NCBI GenBank assembly: GCA_043805855.1
Contig: JAZDHP010000010.1
Location: forward strand, 1 to 46,426
Direction of reading: 5' to 3'
Origin: Candidatus Micrarchaeota archaeon
GTDB lineage: Archaea > Micrarchaeota > Micrarchaeia > Norongarragalinales > UBA8480
DNA: 46,426 nt
Positions within the stretch are counted from its first letter, which is position 1, and every line of letters begins with the position of its first letter. This document shows, in pieces, positions 12,559 to 44,051 of this stretch. The notes beneath the pieces are model-generated. The model was not told the DNA's origin. It did not search any database and was given only the letters and a program-made list of their open reading frames with translations. The translations under genes were made by a program, and so were the position numbers.

Positions 12559-13217
12559 AATTCGCTTAATCCTTTTTGCTGTGCTTTTTCTTTTAAGTTT
12601 TTTACCGTAGCCCACTCGTGGCGAATGTACTCTTGCGCGTTTTTATTAGTGTGGTGCTTTTCCAGGAATTTCTTCGTGTTTGGATCAGCTGGGTAGCCGG
12701 AGCCGAATTCGCCGATTATCTTTTCAATTTTTCTAATCTCTGCGTCGCGTTCAACCTTTGCCACTATGCTTGCGGCGCTCGCAACTGGATAAGTTACGTC
12801 GGCTTTGTTCTCAGCAACTATCTCCGCGTTTCCCGCGTAATATTTTCTTATGCGCGTTGCGAATTTTGAAGGAATCGGGTCCGGCGAGTCAACGTAAACA
12901 GTTTGAAACGCAGTTGTCTTTTCTAACTTTGTCAACAGTTCGCCAATTACTTGTGCTTCGTATTCATTTAGTGAAACTTTTCTCTGCATTACTTCAGTGA
13001 TTTCCGCCGCAGTGGCGCTTTTCAAAACATAAATTCCTTTTTTCAATTCAACAGCAAGTTTTTCTCTTTGCAACGCAGAGAGCATTTTGGAATCTTTTAC
13101 GCCGGTTTTTTTCAACTCTGCTTCTTTGTCAGCGTCAACAGCGTAGGCGCATATTACTAGTGGTCCAATTACTGGACCCCGTCCTGCTTCGTCCACTCCG
13201 ACTATTATTCTATTCAT
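12555..13217 (-). CDS. rnhB: Ribonuclease HII
   Basis: GVDEAGRGPVIGP, VKDSK, AASIVAKVERD, GSGYP.DP.T. Confidence 0.97.
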   Translation of the reverse strand: MNRIIVGVDEAGRGPVIGPLVICAYAVDADKEAELKKTGVKDSKMLSALQREKLAVELKKGIYVLKSATAAEITEVMQRKVSLNEYEAQVIGELLTKLEKTTAFQTVYVDSPDPIPSKFATRIRKYYAGNAEIVAENKADVTYPVASAASIVAKVERDAEIRKIEKIIGEFGSGYPADPNTKKFLEKHHTNKNAQEYIRHEWATVKNLKEKAQQKGLSEF

Positions 13218-13932
13218 GGTGTGTTCTCGCCAGTAGTTGTATTAAATAGCTAAGTTTAGGTAAGTGTTTACCTTCAAATTCTTTAAGTTCATCTCGAGTT
13301 ATTCTGGGACTTTTTAAATAAACATGTGCGACTTGTCCAGTGTAGAGTCTTGCGCCTAGAACTGTTTTTGTCGAGTGTGGTTTTCCACTAAATTCATATT
13401 CAACCAATATTTCTCTCGGGTGTTGAGTTATACTTCGAGGGCCTTGTTCATAGGTGAGTGTCAATTCTCTTCCTATATATGTGTGTTTTAAGGAAGTTAC
13501 TGTTTTTTTTACATGAGCTGGCGCTTCTTGCTGTACAAAAAGTGATAGCCAAGGTCGACTATTGCCAGGGTGGCCATGAAGATTAACTACGCTTGCGCCT
13601 ACGCCTGCTCGTTCTAGCAAAGCTATTAAGTTTTCATCGAGAGGTACTTTGTCGGCGCGTTTCTTAACAGTGTAAAATAATTTCTTTACAGTTGTTCCCT
13701 TTGCTTTTGCGGTTTTTTCCATCTCGCGCCAGAATCCATGTGGCGTCCAAGCTACTGGAATTAAAACAGTAACTGCGCCGTGTTTTCCCCAAGCTAAATG
13801 GTTTCGTACTGCTATATTTCTACTGCCTTCATTTAAGTGCCTACCTGCTAGTACGACGACTTTCCTTTGCTCTGGCGGCAGCGCCATTATCTGACTTACG
13901 AACTCCGCTTTGTTCTTTGGCTTGAGAAGCAT
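13210..13932 (-). CDS. Basic hypothetical protein, M14/AstE-like family (paralog 2 of 3)
   Basis: AGRHLNEG...WTPHGFW...NLHG...VEY.F.G. Confidence 0.6.
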   Translation of the reverse strand: MLLKPKNKAEFVSQIMALPPEQRKVVVLAGRHLNEGSRNIAVRNHLAWGKHGAVTVLIPVAWTPHGFWREMEKTAKAKGTTVKKLFYTVKKRADKVPLDENLIALLERAGVGASVVNLHGHPGNSRPWLSLFVQQEAPAHVKKTVTSLKHTYIGRELTLTYEQGPRSITQHPREILVEYEFSGKPHSTKTVLGARLYTGQVAHVYLKSPRITRDELKEFEGKHLPKLSYLIQLLARTHHE

Positions 13933-14087
13933 TATACTTTAATGTCAAAAGGGTTTTTTACCCGTACGTCGCTTTTATTTACGCACTTTATTGCTTTAGG
14001 TTTTCGAGCCACGGGTCTCGAAGGCCTGCGGCGATTGAGCGGCCTTTGTGGGGTCATAGTACAACCTGGTAGTATATTAGGCTCCAG

Positions 14088-14145
14088 TCATATGGAGCAC
14101 AGAGAACCGCTAGAAATAGTTGTTCAATGATGAACTGTTGAAGAA
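14088..14145 (+). ncRNA. tRNA-Trp canonical intron encoding a box C/D guide for Cm34
   Basis: Guide TGGAGC is antisense to GCUCCA, followed by A and D-like box CAGA (N+5 lands on C34). GAAC/GTTC stem and box C ATGATGA at 14127-14133. Confidence 0.75.
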
Positions 14146-14166
14146 ACCTAAGGATCGGGGTTCAAA

Positions 14167-14299
14167 TGCCCATCTTTTCTCTTTTTGCGAAAAGAGAAAA
14201 GCTAGGCGCTCCAAAAGAGAAAAGGCGAAGTTGCTTTTTCTTTTGGCGCCACGCCTGGCACCTTTTCTTTTCGTAAAAGAAAAGGGGCATGGCTGAAAA
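14167..14299 (+). other. 133-nt non-canonical tRNA intron at 59/60 with strict BHB and three hairpins
   Basis: Central helix TTCA/TGAA, AAT bulges on both sides, outer helices GGGG/CCCC and GCC/GGC; hairpins at 14174-14201, 14205-14250 and 14261-14285. Confidence 0.85.
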
Positions 14300-14343
14300 T
14301 CCCCGCGACCCCACTTTTTATTTTTTTCTTTATTTTGCTTAGT

Positions 14344-15042
14344 TTAAATGAGTGCAAACGTCCGTTTCTTTTTTGCGACTAAATCGCTTATATGCTTTAT
14401 TACTGTGGTTAGTGTTTTTGCATATTTGTCATCGAATTCTTGCAATGCTTGTCTGTTTATTCTGTTTTGGGTTAAGTAGAGCGTGTTTATGTGTTCAGGT
14501 ATGTGTCCGTTTAGATAAATTTTTGGATTAACTTTTATTTTAGTTACCGTTGCATCGCCACCAAAGAAATATTCTATTAACATATCTGGATCTGCAGGGT
14601 GGGCATCTGATAAGTGCGCATTTCCTTCCACTATTGATGTTAGTGCAGTTTTAGTTGCTGCGGTAAGTCTACTGGATATTAATTGTAAGCCGCTTTTTTG
14701 TGAGGGCGTTCCATGAAAGTGTATTATAAATCCCTTATTGATTTCAAGTTGTATTTGACTGGATATTGAACGGTCATCTGGAACCTTTGCTGCTAATTCG
14801 CGGACTTTTACCGAGTCTTGTCTTTCGCCGTGTTTCTTCCAAAATCCATGTGGCGTCCATTGGCCAGGAATGCGTACTACTACTGCGCCGTGTTCTTCCC
14901 AGCTTTTGTGATGGCGGCGTGCAATGTTAGTTGTTCCTTCATTTGGGTGTCGGCCAACTAGTATTATTACGCGCCGTTGATGTTCTGGAAGTGCTTTAAG
15001 CTGTGCTATGAGTTCTTCTCTGTTTTTTGGTCTTAAGATCAT
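14344..15042 (-). CDS. Basic hypothetical protein, M14/AstE-like family (paralog 3 of 3)
   Basis: VGRHPNEG...WTPHGFW...IHFHG...IEYFFGG. Confidence 0.6.
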   Translation of the reverse strand: MILRPKNREELIAQLKALPEHQRRVIILVGRHPNEGTTNIARRHHKSWEEHGAVVVRIPGQWTPHGFWKKHGERQDSVKVRELAAKVPDDRSISSQIQLEINKGFIIHFHGTPSQKSGLQLISSRLTAATKTALTSIVEGNAHLSDAHPADPDMLIEYFFGGDATVTKIKVNPKIYLNGHIPEHINTLYLTQNRINRQALQEFDDKYAKTLTTVIKHISDLVAKKKRTFALI

Positions 15043-15087
15043 TGTTTTATTTGCTAAGAGCGTACGGCATTTAAAAGTACCCGAACC

Positions 15088-15120
15088 TTTAAATACTTGT
15101 CACTGTCGAGTAGTAACTAG
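15088..15120 (+). promoter_or_regulatory. TATA box (TTTAAATA) followed by operator TTGTCAC-N9-GTAAC
   Basis: Same arrangement as upstream of 1921..3411. Confidence 0.6.
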
Positions 15121-15128
15121 GTGTTTAG

Positions 15129-18002
15129 ATGAATAAAGCGTTATCTTATCTTGTAGCAGGAGCGGTCCTACTTTTAGTAGCTGGCTTCGCTAATGCGTAT
15201 ACTGTTAATGTAGCGGTAGCAACAGGCTATCCTGTTTCGTACTCGCATTACTGCGCGTATTCTGAGTATTATAACTATTATGCATGTCAACCTTACGTTT
15301 CTGGCTATTACTGCGATCCGTTTGATCCATTTTATTACCAATACTGCTATTCGCCTTACGTGTACAACTATGCTCCCTATTCTACTTACTACCCAACTTA
15401 CGTAGCTAACCCCGGAACAATTGTTTACACTTCAAGCGGAACGCCAGCAGCTCAGCCTCAAGGTCCACCTTGTAGCGATGGAACGCAATCAGGAATGTGT
15501 TCTTCAGATTTTCCAAAATATTGTTTTAATGGCCAACTAATTGAAAAGGCCACATTGTGCGGTTGTCCAGCCGGCCAAACGCAAGACGAAAACAACCGCA
15601 ACCGCTGTGTTGCACAATTGTGCAGCGACGGAACTGCGTTGAATTCATGTTCTTCTTCAAAACCACAATTCTGCACTTCAAACGCTAACTTAGTTGATCG
15701 CCCAACTCAGTGTGGCTGTCCAACTGGTTCTAAACTAGAAGGTAGTGTATGCGCTCCTTTGAACTCAATTTGTTTTGTTTCAAGCGTCTCGCCGTCAACA
15801 GTGCGTGCGGGACAAAGCGCAGTAGTGAGCGTTTCTTATAGCGACGTGCAAAACGCACATGGCTATGTCAATTGTGGCAACGGTCAAGTTGCTTCACTTG
15901 CATGTAATGGTGGAGTAAGCGGCTCATGCCTCGCATCGTGTTCATATTCTTCACAAGCAACACCAACAGTACAAGCTTATGTTAATGGCAATTTATGTTC
16001 AAGCTCTGCAAACGTCAATGTTGTTCCGGCTTTGCCAACAACTGGCACTGCTTTAATTAGAGTAACTGATTGTGCAACTGGGCGCGGTATTCCCGGAGCT
16101 TCAATAAGCGCAGGTGGCGCTTCTGTTGTTACAAATGCAAACGGTGAAGCAACTGCAACTAGCCTAGCGCTAGGTAGCGGTAGTGTAATCGTAAATGCAA
16201 ATGGCTATTCAACTGGCTTTTCTTCTTTAGTTTCTCAAAGTGGTTCAACTTCAATTGTTCCAGTTTGTTTAAGTTCAGTTCCAGCGTGTGACGTTGGAAT
16301 TGCACTAGCGGGAACAGTTACAACGAACAACGTGCAAAACGGAGTTCAATTAATTGTAACTAACAATTTACCAGAAAGTAACAACGTGGCTATTTCTTAC
16401 TCTTCGCCAGTAACTGTAAACGGCCCGCAAAGCGTTTCGCTTGCTCCGTTAGAGTCAAAAATAATTACGATTTATCCTCAAGTTTCGCAGAGCACTTCAG
16501 TTTCAGGAACTGCAAGTGTAACTGCACGTGGAAAACAAGCTTGTAGCTCAACCGCAAATGTGTTACTTAACTTAAATGGCGGCTTATCGCTACGTGCGTT
16601 GACAACTTCTCAAGTTGCTCACGGCGGCAGCGAAGTATGCTATGATTTAGTATTGCAAAACCGCGCTGGTCAAGACGCGACTGTTACGCTATCTGGTTCA
16701 GCGCCGGGAGTAACGGTTAATTTTTACAACAGCCGCTTTGTTTTAGCAAATGGCGAAACTCGCAACGCGAGAATGTGCGCTTCTATTCCAGAAGGCGCAA
16801 CGGGAAGTAGAACAATTACAATTAATGCAAACAGTGCATTGAACCCAGTGTCTACTAGTGTAGAGCTGATTGTCAATCCATTTATGTCTTCAAACGTACT
16901 TGGCTGCTTTAGTGTAAACACTTCTACAACTCAATTTGTCGAAGTTCAATTGACAAACACAGGGCCAGGAGAAAGTTTCGTTGCACGTTTAACTCCAACA
17001 CTAAGCTTCACTCCACGTTTAACTCAAGAGAATTTATTTAATTTTGTTAACCGCTCAACTCGCTCGCTTTTCATACAGCTTGATCCAAGTTCAATGAATG
17101 AACTCGAAGGCCGCGCAACGTTAACTGTAAGCGCAAAAGAATCAAGTGCAAAAGTTTTTGAGCAGGAGCTCTGTTTTAGAAAGGCAGGCACTTTCGACTC
17201 AAACGTTTTAGTTACGCCAGTTCGCGTTTCAGTACAGCAAGGTAAAATTGGACGTTCATTTGTCCACGTGAAGAACACTGGAAACACAGTTGACAACTAT
17301 GCAATTGAAATCGCTGCACCGTTTAGCGCGATAAGTGTGAACAGCGCAATGTTTTCAGTGCAACCTGGCCAAGACAAGGCAATTGAAATCGTGCTATCGC
17401 CTTCAACTTCAGTGCCAGCTGCTACGTATCTAGTTCCAATTGACGTTTACTCGCTGCATGATCCAGCGCTACGAACTAAAGTTTCAACTGTAAACCTAGT
17501 CGTAGACGTCACAAACGCACCAACAACTGCACTTCGCTTGGTACTTGCCAATCCGCCAGTAATTTCCTTTAACCAAAGCGCATCGTTGATTTACATAAAA
17601 GTGCCAGTTGTAAACTACGAAGACGACAGCCGTACAATAACGCCGTCAATAGCTGGATTGCCAGCAGGATGGACGTACACTGTAAATCCATCGCAAGTTA
17701 CACTTCCAAAACTTGGAATGACTGACTTTAACTTTGTTGTAAAAACACAAGGCATTGAAGCAAAAGACTACAATGCAACTTTGATGTTCACCGACGAAAG
17801 CGGACGCCAAGTAACTCAAGGAATCGTGCTTCCGGCAAAGTCAAGCAACTGGATGACTGGCTTGTTTACGCTAGGTTCAAGCGGTCAATTGTTTACCGCG
17901 TTGATTGTAATTTTGGTACTCGCAGGTTTGTACTTGCTCTACCGCGCATGGCAATTACGCCAGACAATTAACCAGCAAGAAGCTCTAGTTGAACGCAGAT
18001 AG
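15129..18002 (+). CDS. Large surface protein: Tyr-rich N-terminus, two Cys-rich repeats, multiple Ig-like/NEW3-like domains, C-terminal TM
   Basis: Signal peptide; CSDGT...CSS..P.(Y/F)C...CGCP.G twice; V.N.G motifs; MTGLF then TM helix. Confidence 0.8.
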   Translation: MNKALSYLVAGAVLLLVAGFANAYTVNVAVATGYPVSYSHYCAYSEYYNYYACQPYVSGYYCDPFDPFYYQYCYSPYVYNYAPYSTYYPTYVANPGTIVYTSSGTPAAQPQGPPCSDGTQSGMCSSDFPKYCFNGQLIEKATLCGCPAGQTQDENNRNRCVAQLCSDGTALNSCSSSKPQFCTSNANLVDRPTQCGCPTGSKLEGSVCAPLNSICFVSSVSPSTVRAGQSAVVSVSYSDVQNAHGYVNCGNGQVASLACNGGVSGSCLASCSYSSQATPTVQAYVNGNLCSSSANVNVVPALPTTGTALIRVTDCATGRGIPGASISAGGASVVTNANGEATATSLALGSGSVIVNANGYSTGFSSLVSQSGSTSIVPVCLSSVPACDVGIALAGTVTTNNVQNGVQLIVTNNLPESNNVAISYSSPVTVNGPQSVSLAPLESKIITIYPQVSQSTSVSGTASVTARGKQACSSTANVLLNLNGGLSLRALTTSQVAHGGSEVCYDLVLQNRAGQDATVTLSGSAPGVTVNFYNSRFVLANGETRNARMCASIPEGATGSRTITINANSALNPVSTSVELIVNPFMSSNVLGCFSVNTSTTQFVEVQLTNTGPGESFVARLTPTLSFTPRLTQENLFNFVNRSTRSLFIQLDPSSMNELEGRATLTVSAKESSAKVFEQELCFRKAGTFDSNVLVTPVRVSVQQGKIGRSFVHVKNTGNTVDNYAIEIAAPFSAISVNSAMFSVQPGQDKAIEIVLSPSTSVPAATYLVPIDVYSLHDPALRTKVSTVNLVVDVTNAPTTALRLVLANPPVISFNQSASLIYIKVPVVNYEDDSRTITPSIAGLPAGWTYTVNPSQVTLPKLGMTDFNFVVKTQGIEAKDYNATLMFTDESGRQVTQGIVLPAKSSNWMTGLFTLGSSGQLFTALIVILVLAGLYLLYRAWQLRQTINQQEALVERR

Positions 18003-27782: not shown

Positions 27783-28949
27783 GTGGGAGTTTTACTTGAA
27801 AAGATAAAAGATGGCAAAATAATTGTAACCGACGCGTCGAGCGTTGGCTCGCTGTTAAAAGGGTTTTTCGGAAGCCAGTACGGTGAGAACAAATCTAAAA
27901 TACAACTAATGCCAGAAGAAGCGCTGTATCTTTCAGATGTGCGTAACGCCGTGTGTACAGACAATAATGTTCCAATTACTTTTAACGAGTTAGCTGCGCC
28001 TTTCAAAGACCAAGAAAAATTTCTTGCAAGATATTTTTGTTACCGTGACTGGCGTGACCGTGCGTTAATTGCACGGGATATGAGCGAAGCTGAAGATACT
28101 AACTATGGCCGCTCGCCAGTTGTCAAATATCCTTCGCAGGATTTAGTTGTACCTCAAGTCAAGAGCAAGGCGCTGTACTTTCCCGACGATTTAATGGCGG
28201 TCATGGACGACGATGAAGAAGGCCGTTCACTTTACGACGGCTATTGGCTTGGACAGTACGGCACTTACAAAGCGAAAAAACACGGCCGCTTACTTAAGCT
28301 AGACGCTTATGAGTGTCTATTCCTCGCAAAGCACGGAAAGATGAAACTCGATATTTCTCCGACGAAATTGCTCCGCGAGGCAAAAAAGCGCCGCAATGAC
28401 TTCGAAGCGCTGTACGACGTTTACGAAGATTTACGCCTGCGTGGTTTCGTGTTGAAAACTGGGTTTAAGTTCGGAACACACTTTCGTTTGTACTTCCCCG
28501 GCGCAAAGCCATCGCTTGACCAAGCAGAGTGGATGCACTCGAAGCACGTTATCCACGTTTTTCCACGCGACGCAAAGATGCTAATTTCAGAGTGGGCGCG
28601 CGCAATTAGAGTGGCGCACGGGGTGAAGAAAACTTTCATCTTGGCAATTCCAGGGAGAAAGCGCGAGTCAAAAGCTAAACTTGATTTCTTACTTTACCAC
28701 CGGAAGCACGGCAACGCGGAGAATCCAAAGGAACACAAACCGAAGTTCGTAATGCTGGCGTTGAGTGAAGAGGAGGAAATCGGCGGACAAGAATTGGCGC
28801 AGGCTATAGTGAGAGCAAAAGACTTAGGTCTCGACTTGATTTTAAGTATCTGCGACCGCGAGACAAGCATAACGCACTATCGTGTTAAACGTATTGAACT
28901 GCCAAAAAGTCAATACGAATACTATGAGATTGAGTGGGTACAACCATGA
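27783..28949 (+). CDS. endA: tRNA-splicing endonuclease, three-unit epsilon2 (ARMAN) type
   Basis: 388 aa; EEALYL unit; catalytic unit KTGFKFGTHFRLY...HSKH...RVAHGVKK; ARMAN-specific-loop-like GQYGTYKAKKHG. Confidence 0.92.
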   Translation: MGVLLEKIKDGKIIVTDASSVGSLLKGFFGSQYGENKSKIQLMPEEALYLSDVRNAVCTDNNVPITFNELAAPFKDQEKFLARYFCYRDWRDRALIARDMSEAEDTNYGRSPVVKYPSQDLVVPQVKSKALYFPDDLMAVMDDDEEGRSLYDGYWLGQYGTYKAKKHGRLLKLDAYECLFLAKHGKMKLDISPTKLLREAKKRRNDFEALYDVYEDLRLRGFVLKTGFKFGTHFRLYFPGAKPSLDQAEWMHSKHVIHVFPRDAKMLISEWARAIRVAHGVKKTFILAIPGRKRESKAKLDFLLYHRKHGNAENPKEHKPKFVMLALSEEEEIGGQELAQAIVRAKDLGLDLILSICDRETSITHYRVKRIELPKSQYEYYEIEWVQP

Positions 28950-29050
28950 TTAGCTTAGATTTACTTAAAGGTTTCTTTTTTCATCGATGTTTTTTCTTTG
29001 TGAAAGAAAAAAGATCGGAGTATTATGAGATTGAGTGGGTGCAACCTTAA
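28917..29050 (+). repeat. 33-nt direct repeat of the endA 3' end (28917-28949 and 29018-29050) flanking a T/A hairpin
   Basis: GAATACTATGAGATTGAGTGGGTACAACCATGA versus GAGTATTATGAGATTGAGTGGGTGCAACCTTAA; both encode EYYEIEWVQP-stop. Confidence 0.9.
28946..29050 (+). CDS. Possible 34-aa peptide ending in the EndA C-terminal decapeptide
   Basis: MISLDLLKGFFFHRCFFFVKEKRSEYYEIEWVQP; ATGA overlap with endA and TAATG overlap with the next gene. Confidence 0.3.
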   Translation: MISLDLLKGFFFHRCFFFVKEKRSEYYEIEWVQP

Positions 29051-43912: not shown

Positions 43913-44051
43913 TGGGCCTACTGAGAATCGAATACCTGAACCAATCCTTTTTCTTTTCTGCTGAAAGGCTTTTCTTTTTAATAAAAAGAAAAGGGTTTCT
44001 CAGGGTTTCCTCCGTGTGAGGGAGGCGTCTTAGCCACTCGACTATAGGCCC
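43913..44051 (-). tRNA. tRNA-Val(CAC) with a 66-nt intron at 53/54; exons 44051-43999 and 43932-43913
   Basis: GGGCCTA/TAGGCCC acceptor stem, CCTCC/GGAGG anticodon stem, CAC at 44018-44016; T-arm CTGAG-TTCGATT-CTCAG is restored after intron removal. Confidence 0.9.
43933..43998 (-). other. Non-canonical tRNA intron (53/54) with BHB and T/A-rich hairpin
   Basis: Helix CCTG/CAGG, bulges AG|A and TA|T, helix AACC/GGTT; hairpin CTTTTCTTTTT-ATT-AAAAAGAAAAG. Confidence 0.85.

Follow-up and report, generated by a model that had tools for sequence, protein, structure and literature searches.

A T-loop intron in a micrarchaeal tRNA-Trp gene, probably built from a dispersed double-hairpin repeat

According to the available part of the report on ARMAN-2 (Candidatus Micrarchaeum acidiphilum), this archaeon combines tRNA introns at position 59/60, many disrupted tRNA genes and a splicing endonuclease (EndA) of the epsilon2 type (Fujishima et al. 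2011, PMC3239211). For the Thermoproteales, the accessible accounts record intron families common to different tRNAs, attributed to 'large-scale intron transposition' (Fujishima et al. 2010, via PMC4090602 and 10.64898/2026.10.13.758758). How introns arrive in archaeal tRNA genes is an open question, and the accessible portion of a preprint on Asgard tRNA genes offers no general route of arrival (10.64898/2026.10.13.758758). Here we analyse a stretch of 46,426 nt from a Candidatus Micrarchaeota archaeon (assembly GCA_043805855.1, contig JAZDHP010000010.1, positions 1 to 46,426 of the forward strand; the window), in which a tRNA-Trp(CCA) gene carries a 133-nt insert in its T-loop (14167-14299). 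This insert is probably a protein-spliced 59/60 intron built from a proliferating repeat, a double-hairpin unit of ~50-60 nt (a pyrimidine/purine hairpin plus a purine tract) that we name E and that constitutes a concrete candidate vehicle of intron arrival in this genus.

The locus shares with ARMAN-2 the 59/60 position, a relaxed motif of the hBH type, a three-unit endonuclease and a high share of disrupted tRNA genes; unlike the example given in the available text on that organism, which is 13 nt long and lacks a repeat, the insert described here comprises 133 nt derived from a genome-wide repeat, and all T-loop inserts retained in our scan carry E. With the Thermoproteales families, as the accessible accounts present them, it has in common that closely related introns are shared within one genome by tRNAs that differ in identity, both at the canonical position and at non-canonical ones, together with a gain inferred at the DNA level and a mechanism that is unknown in both cases. 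It differs from those accounts in that the unit is a defined palindromic double hairpin, found as monomers and inverted dimers, and in that E also occurs outside introns, in both orientations, with a filled and an empty site at a protein-coding gene. Measured against the accessible parts of these reports, in which 59/60 introns and shared intron families are already known, what is new here is a hairpin repeat as the body of spliced tRNA introns. A literature search, with subscription journals and supplements outside its reach, found nothing on hairpin repeats in tRNA introns of Micrarchaeota or DPANN archaea.

Small palindromic or double-hairpin repeats include the double-hairpin elements of mitochondria, the GC clusters of yeast, the hairpin elements of sponges and the bacterial repetitive extragenic palindromic (REP) sequences. 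E resembles them in occurring as tens of short perfect hairpins in introns and spacers, in its presence or absence between relatives and in being noncoding; the repeats named are organellar or bacterial, whereas E is archaeal. As in miniature inverted-repeat transposable elements and REP-like elements, the copies are dispersed and numerous, with filled and empty sites. REP has a Y1 transposase, and unlike REP, E is not accompanied by any Y1 transposase match in this 92%-complete assembly. To our knowledge, none of these repeats forms the body of protein-spliced tRNA introns or favours tRNA genes.

The tRNA-Trp gene is organised as follows:
14050..14313, plus strand: tRNA-Trp(CCA) gene with two introns (ARAGORN after scripted intron removal; 5' exon by BLAST)
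14050-14087, 14146-14166 and 14300-14313, plus strand: tRNA-Trp exons
14088..14145, plus strand: canonical 37/38 intron, 58 nt, with box C/D-like features (ARAGORN; motifs read in the sequence)
14167..14299, plus strand: T-loop (59/60) intron, 133 nt (ARAGORN after removal, folding and sequence reading)

No tRNA was reported by ARAGORN in the intact window, and nothing in Rfam reached the gathering score; an Rfam scan of positions 13900-14400 by E-value retrieved only sub-threshold hairpin look-alikes, the best of which obtained 26 bits against a gathering score of 80. Once positions 14167-14299 were deleted by script, ARAGORN recognised tRNA-Trp(cca) and placed a 58-nt intron at its canonical position, and deletion of both inserts left a cloverleaf of 73-74 nt with the 7-nt T-loop TTCAAAT. 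A preliminary description of this locus had proposed both a 133-nt intron in the T-loop and the restoration of precisely this loop sequence upon excision, and both proposals are borne out by the ARAGORN calls. AAAT is present at both intron ends, and a 133-nt deletion starting anywhere from 14164 to 14168 gives an identical product; owing to this repeat, five cut placements are equivalent, and 14166/14167 is singled out by the bulge-helix-bulge (BHB) rule alone. The insert qualifies as an intron by every available sequence test. Since the 5' exon has a single match in the 1.03-Mb, 92%-complete assembly of this genome (BLAST), the tRNA-Trp gene is very probably essential.

The two halves of the predicted splice motif are located at the intron ends:
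14156..14170, plus strand: 5' half, comprising T stem 14156-60, TTCA 14161-64, bulge AAT 14165-67 and GCC 14168-70
14291..14305, plus strand: 3' half, comprising GGC 14291-93, TGAA 14294-97, bulge AAT 14298-300 and T stem 14301-05

A strict BHB (TTCA/TGAA helix with AAT bulges), as claimed beforehand, can be drawn in a 3-4-3 arrangement, but it is not the favoured fold: in constrained folds of the T arm plus intron it lies 5.8 kcal/mol above the minimum free energy (MFE) structure and represents 1.6e-4 of the ensemble. The MFE structure contains instead a relaxed motif that combines the T stem and central helix with a 3' AAU bulge and accounts for 63% of the ensemble, and the ATGCCC/GGGCAT pairing that had been expected to compete with the BHB does so successfully in this predicted structure. 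Folded alone, the intron reaches -60.2 kcal/mol (z -5.86), an energy that none of 200 shuffles equalled, as a single rod with 51 base pairs, preferred over three local hairpins (-56.6), and the pre-tRNA fold has a z of -7.40. Co-transcriptional folding would presumably favour the local hairpins, leaving the 5' site in a loop. Among 16 T-loop introns of the genome, the central-helix pair between T-loop position 57 and the intron 3' end covaries (A-U in 6, G-C in 5, G-U in 2, A-G in 3), which is the outcome expected from selection for splicing; the T stem covaries as well.

The machinery required for excision is encoded in the same genome, and the endonuclease gene lies within the window:
27783..28949, plus strand: three-unit (epsilon2-type) tRNA splicing endonuclease EndA (Pfam tRNA_int_endo and tRNA_int_endo_N; PDB 4fz2)

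EndA matches PDB 4fz2, the epsilon2 enzyme of ARMAN-2, over its full length (E 9e-131). As stated in the available text, the ARMAN-2 enzyme cut a 59/60 intron with a relaxed motif in vitro (PMC3239211). RtcB was detected by profile search with 476 bits. The pre-tRNA would be cut at the relaxed BHB formed by the T stem, the 4-bp TTCA/TGAA helix and the 3' AAT bulge, with the 5' site in a bulge or loop. From these matches we infer that cutting would be performed by the genome's own broad-specificity epsilon2 EndA and that the exons would then be joined by RtcB. The RtcB match (contig C59, positions 12806-15532, minus strand) is split into profile pieces 1-50 and 45-426, ~1.4 kb apart in one 960-aa frame, and this arrangement looks like an intein.

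The body of the intron consists of two copies of E in opposite orientations:
14168..14226, plus strand: E unit, forward (hairpin 14174-14201, purine tract 14211-14224; match to covariance model R1 at 14176-14207, 18.7 bits)
14231..14293, minus strand: E unit, reverse, with a 'type B' look (pyrimidine tract 14234-14246, hairpin 14261-14285; R1 match at 14284..14235, 25.6 bits, E 7e-6)

In E, a hairpin of 10 bp is followed by the purine tract, which is usually situated in the loop of a short stem with variable outer pairs. The 16 T-loop introns, from tRNAs of different identity, align well and in one orientation, in the order T-loop 5' part, hairpin of 9-10 bp, purine tract, YGAA and a 3-nt bulge. 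Conserved features include the purine tract and the hairpin pairing, which even divergent copies maintain, in some cases by double compensatory changes (C-G in 14 and U-A in 2 at column 21/35, for example). The purine tracts, being mirror repeats, might conceivably form a triplex. Model R1 was built from these 16 introns and includes the T arm, so weak matches may be other T-loop introns. The opposite-strand R1 matches identify the Trp insert as a dimer of E forward and E reverse. What looked like a separate module, i.e. a pyrimidine tract, a GC-rich spacer and a hairpin, is E on the opposite strand in eight genome copies, and the 14231-14293 version is found on many metagenome contigs with unlike flanks, all of them partial contigs of relatives from four DNA runs. 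Three pyrimidine/purine stems had been noted in the intron, and they are confirmed as inverted repeats (14174-85/14213-24, 12/12; 14168-85/14190-207, 89%; 14208-22/14235-49, 87%; 14253-71/14275-93, 84%), although a better interpretation is that a single double-hairpin unit is present twice, the second time inverted. The middle stem then arises from pairing between the first unit's purine tract and the second unit's pyrimidine tract, and owing to the inversion the intron has two possible folds, a set of three hairpins and a single long rod. The dimer recurs in the anticodon intron of tRNA-Cys (88.7% over 53 nt) and in the 133-nt T-loop intron of a tRNA on contig C5 that lies in the spacer between the 23S and 16S genes. 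In the T-loop intron on contig C22, E is inverted relative to the Trp and C59 copies.

A BLAST search of the genome with the Trp intron matched many palindromes. The genome contains 83 perfect 8-bp homopyrimidine/homopurine hairpins, compared with means of 0.9 (local) and 7.1 (Markov-type) in shuffled sequences, and many of the 83 are directly flanked by T-loop sequence. R1 has 49 matches in the genome at E<=0.01, and relatives are matched too, such that a covariance-model search, suggested at the outset as a means of finding related hairpins elsewhere, has indeed found them. The 83 hairpins form 76 groups, placed partly by script and partly by eye:
about 54 of 76 groups: inside tRNA gene bodies, in about 39 tRNA genes, mostly at 59/60
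7 of 76: in tRNA leaders or trailers
1 of 76: in an over-long 23S gene
8 of 76: at other intergenic or gene-end sites
1 of 76: a contig-end duplicate
5 of 76: probably chance

The E-bearing tRNA genes (~39) comprise 33 recognised by script logic and 6 by sequence reading. The proposal of a hairpin element hiding in BHB introns therefore holds insofar as E fills most tRNA introns here; it was too narrow in that E also resides in leaders, trailers, the 23S insert and intergenic sites. The 23S gene concerned (contig C5, positions 57583-64899) measures 4253 nt against a model of 2987 positions, and the 16S gene 2437 nt against 1478; each of the two rRNA genes thus carries inserts totalling ~1 kb. 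A scan for T-loop inserts (paired T stems, TTCRA and acceptor stems, with insert lengths of 0 to 513 nt allowed), followed by ARAGORN, yielded 19 tRNA genes with such inserts, of which 15 measure 55-68 nt, two 133 nt and the other two 78 and 160 nt. Every insert kept by the scan carries E and none is short; a 368-nt row on contig C8 was dropped as spurious. ARAGORN accepted 40 E-bearing deletions, placed, at approximate positions and with unreliable isotype labels, at 59/60 (17), on the 5' side of the T arm (5), in the D arm or acceptor (7), in the anticodon arm (6) and elsewhere (5). On the raw genome, the same program reports 11 tRNA genes only, several of them doubtful, so that tRNAs will be badly under-counted in genome annotations of these lineages.

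A second E-bearing tRNA gene of the window was also missed by ARAGORN on the raw sequence:
43913..44051, minus strand: tRNA-Val(CAC), interrupted at 53/54 by an E intron of 66 nt (43998..43933); R1 match 43935-44004

Its intron ends form a central helix CCTG/CAGG and an inner helix AACC/GGTT.

Comparison with relatives (genomes G001, G002 and G003, among others) revealed rapid turnover. The T-loop of tRNA-Trp contains the dimer in this genome, a 61-nt monomer in G002 (same genus) and no intron in G003, which is very close to G002 in the flanks of the gene; in another family, a dimer of the same design occupies tRNA-Trp of G040, G024 and G036, with a nested extra insert in that of G024, and G032 has none. 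The Trp dimer has its closest relative in G001, as a T-loop insert of tRNA-Gly(CCC) (82% over window positions 14153-14255, E 1e-19). This gene has no T-loop intron in G002, where E forms an intron in the anticodon loop, and in the present genome is interrupted twice, by an intron in the D-loop and by a 59-nt E intron in the T-loop. Orthologues of tRNA-Trp (this genome, G002, G003) and of tRNA-Gly(CCC) (this genome, G001, G002) thus differ in intron presence, as in the Thermoproteales family. The comparison of orthologous tRNA-Trp genes that had been recommended accordingly returned dimer, monomer or nothing, and this presence, absence and replacement, together with the abundant related hairpins, upholds the earlier suggestion of a repeat element.

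At E<=1e-4, R1 matches 41 of 68 genomes of the order and 25 of 151 genomes in a phylum-wide sample. Copy numbers in the order search are highest in this genome (31), followed by G002 (21), G013 (16), G003 (13) and G029 (12) among the counts recorded; several genera belonging to the same family lack matches altogether. The phylum-wide sample includes two large families without a single match (0/45 and 0/25), and also two genomes from a different order with 14 and 16 copies. E is a hugely over-represented repeat that clusters in tRNA genes, keeps its structure and varies from one sister genome to the next; tRNA genes gain it, lose it and trade it among themselves as quickly as the species of a single genus diverge.

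Outside introns, the clearest case is a copy directly behind the EndA gene:
28950..29024, minus strand: E copy following the EndA stop codon and flanked by direct repeats (28924-28946 and 29025-29047); R1 match 28954-29027

This site is filled in the present genome and in G002 and is empty in G003, in which one copy of the repeated stretch (~23-33 nt are duplicated) is present and the next gene starts at once. Over 47 nt, the copy shares 98% identity with the intron that tRNA-Gly(CCC) of G002 carries in its anticodon loop. Filled and empty sites of this kind suggest that E is mobile, and we infer that it has probably spread at the DNA level. Two tRNA genes of this genome are followed by E and then by a second copy of their own 3' end, of 16 nt and 17+ nt (C9:30764-30864 and C32:6080-6200); the second copies may be alternative 3' exons or may reflect a long target duplication. 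At five other intergenic E copies, no direct repeat of >=10 nt was found except low-complexity matches.

Several observations nevertheless weigh against a proliferating repeat that is spliced out of the T-loop. The strict BHB is a minor conformer, and the MFE structure buries the 5' cut site in the AUGCCC/GGGCAU helix. The T-loop copies lack a long target duplication and show AAAT only. Their single orientation (16/16) would be explained by constraint, or by copying from one homologous site to another, no less well than by transposition. Six Pfam families (Cas1, Y1_Tnp, RVT_1, TnpB-type, DDE_Tnp_1 and rve) were searched in the 92%-complete assembly with 0 matches each. The Trp intron of G002 has no donor of >90% identity, its best paralogues being 82-90% identical, i.e. 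no recent copy. The census is partly manual, and ARAGORN isotype labels are unreliable for multi-intron genes. Finally, ~61 of ~70 family copies are located in or beside tRNA genes, which by estimate make up roughly 1% of the genome; this tie is unexplained, and neutrality alone does not account for it, since intergenic DNA is, by estimate, far larger than intron space.

As to how the introns came about, we tentatively put forward, as a possibility open to considerable doubt, that E is an archaeal counterpart of 'introners': a tRNA-seeking, non-autonomous palindromic element whose arrival would create a protein-spliced intron, with the T-loop as a universal landing site, and which would be the vehicle of tRNA intron gain and of 'intron transposition', moved by an unrecognised enzyme or by host repair or splicing proteins. 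The eukaryotic introners are, in the available text, transposon-derived spliceosomal introns (PMC11282704). The likeness to what is described there lies in the idea of a non-autonomous repeat that is an intron as soon as it arrives, since splice signals are provided jointly by its ends and the target; unlike introners, E would rely on EndA and a BHB instead of the spliceosome, and the creation of introns by its arrival is here a candidate only. Whether or not E creates introns, the T-loop probably acts as a general landing site in that the intron end, YGAA plus AAT, can form the splice helix with the TTCRA of any tRNA; TTCRA being near-universal, one intron end would fit all tRNAs, which is probably why the T-loop is favoured. 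E could instead have colonised an old, short 59/60 intron as a safe place, expanding introns rather than creating them. The 13-nt 59/60 introns of ARMAN-2, as given in the available text (PMC3239211), are consistent with this, as are intron ends fitted to each site (the CCTG/CAGG helix of tRNA-Val, for example, which plain insertion would not bring), the nested insert within E in G024, and dimers, which suggest landing in or next to E. Such a history is rather unlikely, given that all T-loop inserts kept in this genome carry E (the C8 row having been dropped), that tRNA-Trp of G003 and G032 is devoid of any T-loop intron, even a short one, and that the same applies to tRNA-Gly(CCC) of G002 as opposed to that of G001. 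Either way, a defined repeat that forms the body of most tRNA introns, differs between orthologues of sister species and has at least one clean filled and empty site outside introns renders the question of intron arrival testable in this genus, by comparative genomics and by cleavage assays with a characterised enzyme type.

The remaining explanations fare less well. If E were a working RNA part, be it a maturation module for tRNA and rRNA or an excised (circular) intron acting as a stable regulatory RNA, its spread would reflect function and not selfishness; the compensatory changes in the hairpin, the conserved purine tract, the uniform orientation of the 16 aligned copies, the presence of E in most tRNA genes and its location exactly in those transcript parts that are processed away (introns, leaders, trailers) are all compatible with such a role. 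We consider it improbable, because orthologous tRNAs of the same genus carry E, lack it or have a different form, related families have no match (0/45 and 0/25), both orientations of E are found in introns, one copy lies behind a protein gene at a site that is empty in a congener, and no Rfam family matches. Spread through RNA, in which excised introns would be reinserted at BHB-like sites by reversed EndA and ligase steps and then fixed in DNA, would explain the tie to tRNA genes and agrees with the very strong bias towards these genes and splice-competent sites and with the lack of a DNA transposase match among the six families searched; it is quite improbable nonetheless, as RVT_1 retrieved no reverse transcriptase, and the reverse-orientation and intergenic copies, along with the EndA copy and its 23-33 nt duplication, point to DNA events. 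That the tRNA-Trp gene is dead, disrupted by a repeat that is not spliced, might be suspected from its being missed by tRNA finders and from the disfavoured strict BHB. This is scarcely credible for a gene that supplies the sole tRNA-Trp exon match of a 92%-complete genome, whose exons form a clean cloverleaf, whose intron design recurs in ~20 other tRNA genes with a covarying splice helix and whose orthologues in another family have kept a similarly designed insert at this position.

A further comparison concerns the canonical intron of the same gene. Box C/D guide RNAs are carried by the canonical tRNA-Trp intron of Euryarchaeota, and likewise the intron at 14088-14145, as opposed to the T-loop intron, contains the C-box-like motif ATGATGA (14128-14134) and a stretch, TGGAGC (14093-14098), complementary to the anticodon-loop sequence GCTCCA (14081-14086) and followed by CAGA. 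It resembles the intron-borne box C/D guide of other archaeal tRNA-Trp genes, and the C/C' boxes are clearer in the canonical tRNA-Trp introns of G040, G024 and G036 than in this genome. A box C/D guide in the T-loop intron was considered and rejected: the first base of its CTGA (14293-96) varies among the 16 family members, and no Rfam snoRNA reached the gathering score.

Neither of the open reading frames that flank tRNA-Trp on the minus strand, 13210-13932 (240 aa) and 14344-15042 (232 aa), matches a Pfam family. A further element precedes the gene:
14013..14046, plus strand: GC-rich leader hairpin motif, a second recurrent module, 3-4 nt upstream of tRNA-Trp

This motif recurs upstream of tRNA genes on contigs C47 and C17 and inside introns, in either orientation, on C6, C21, C22 and C45; it is also found on other metagenome contigs, there before a different tRNA 5' end, and appears to be a second mobile or leader module. 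A third recurrent module, built around CTGAGTCA between two short hairpins, was observed at C8:9561-9727, C56:2270-2330 and C45:23380-23450, where it is nested inside E-bearing introns or an intergenic E copy.

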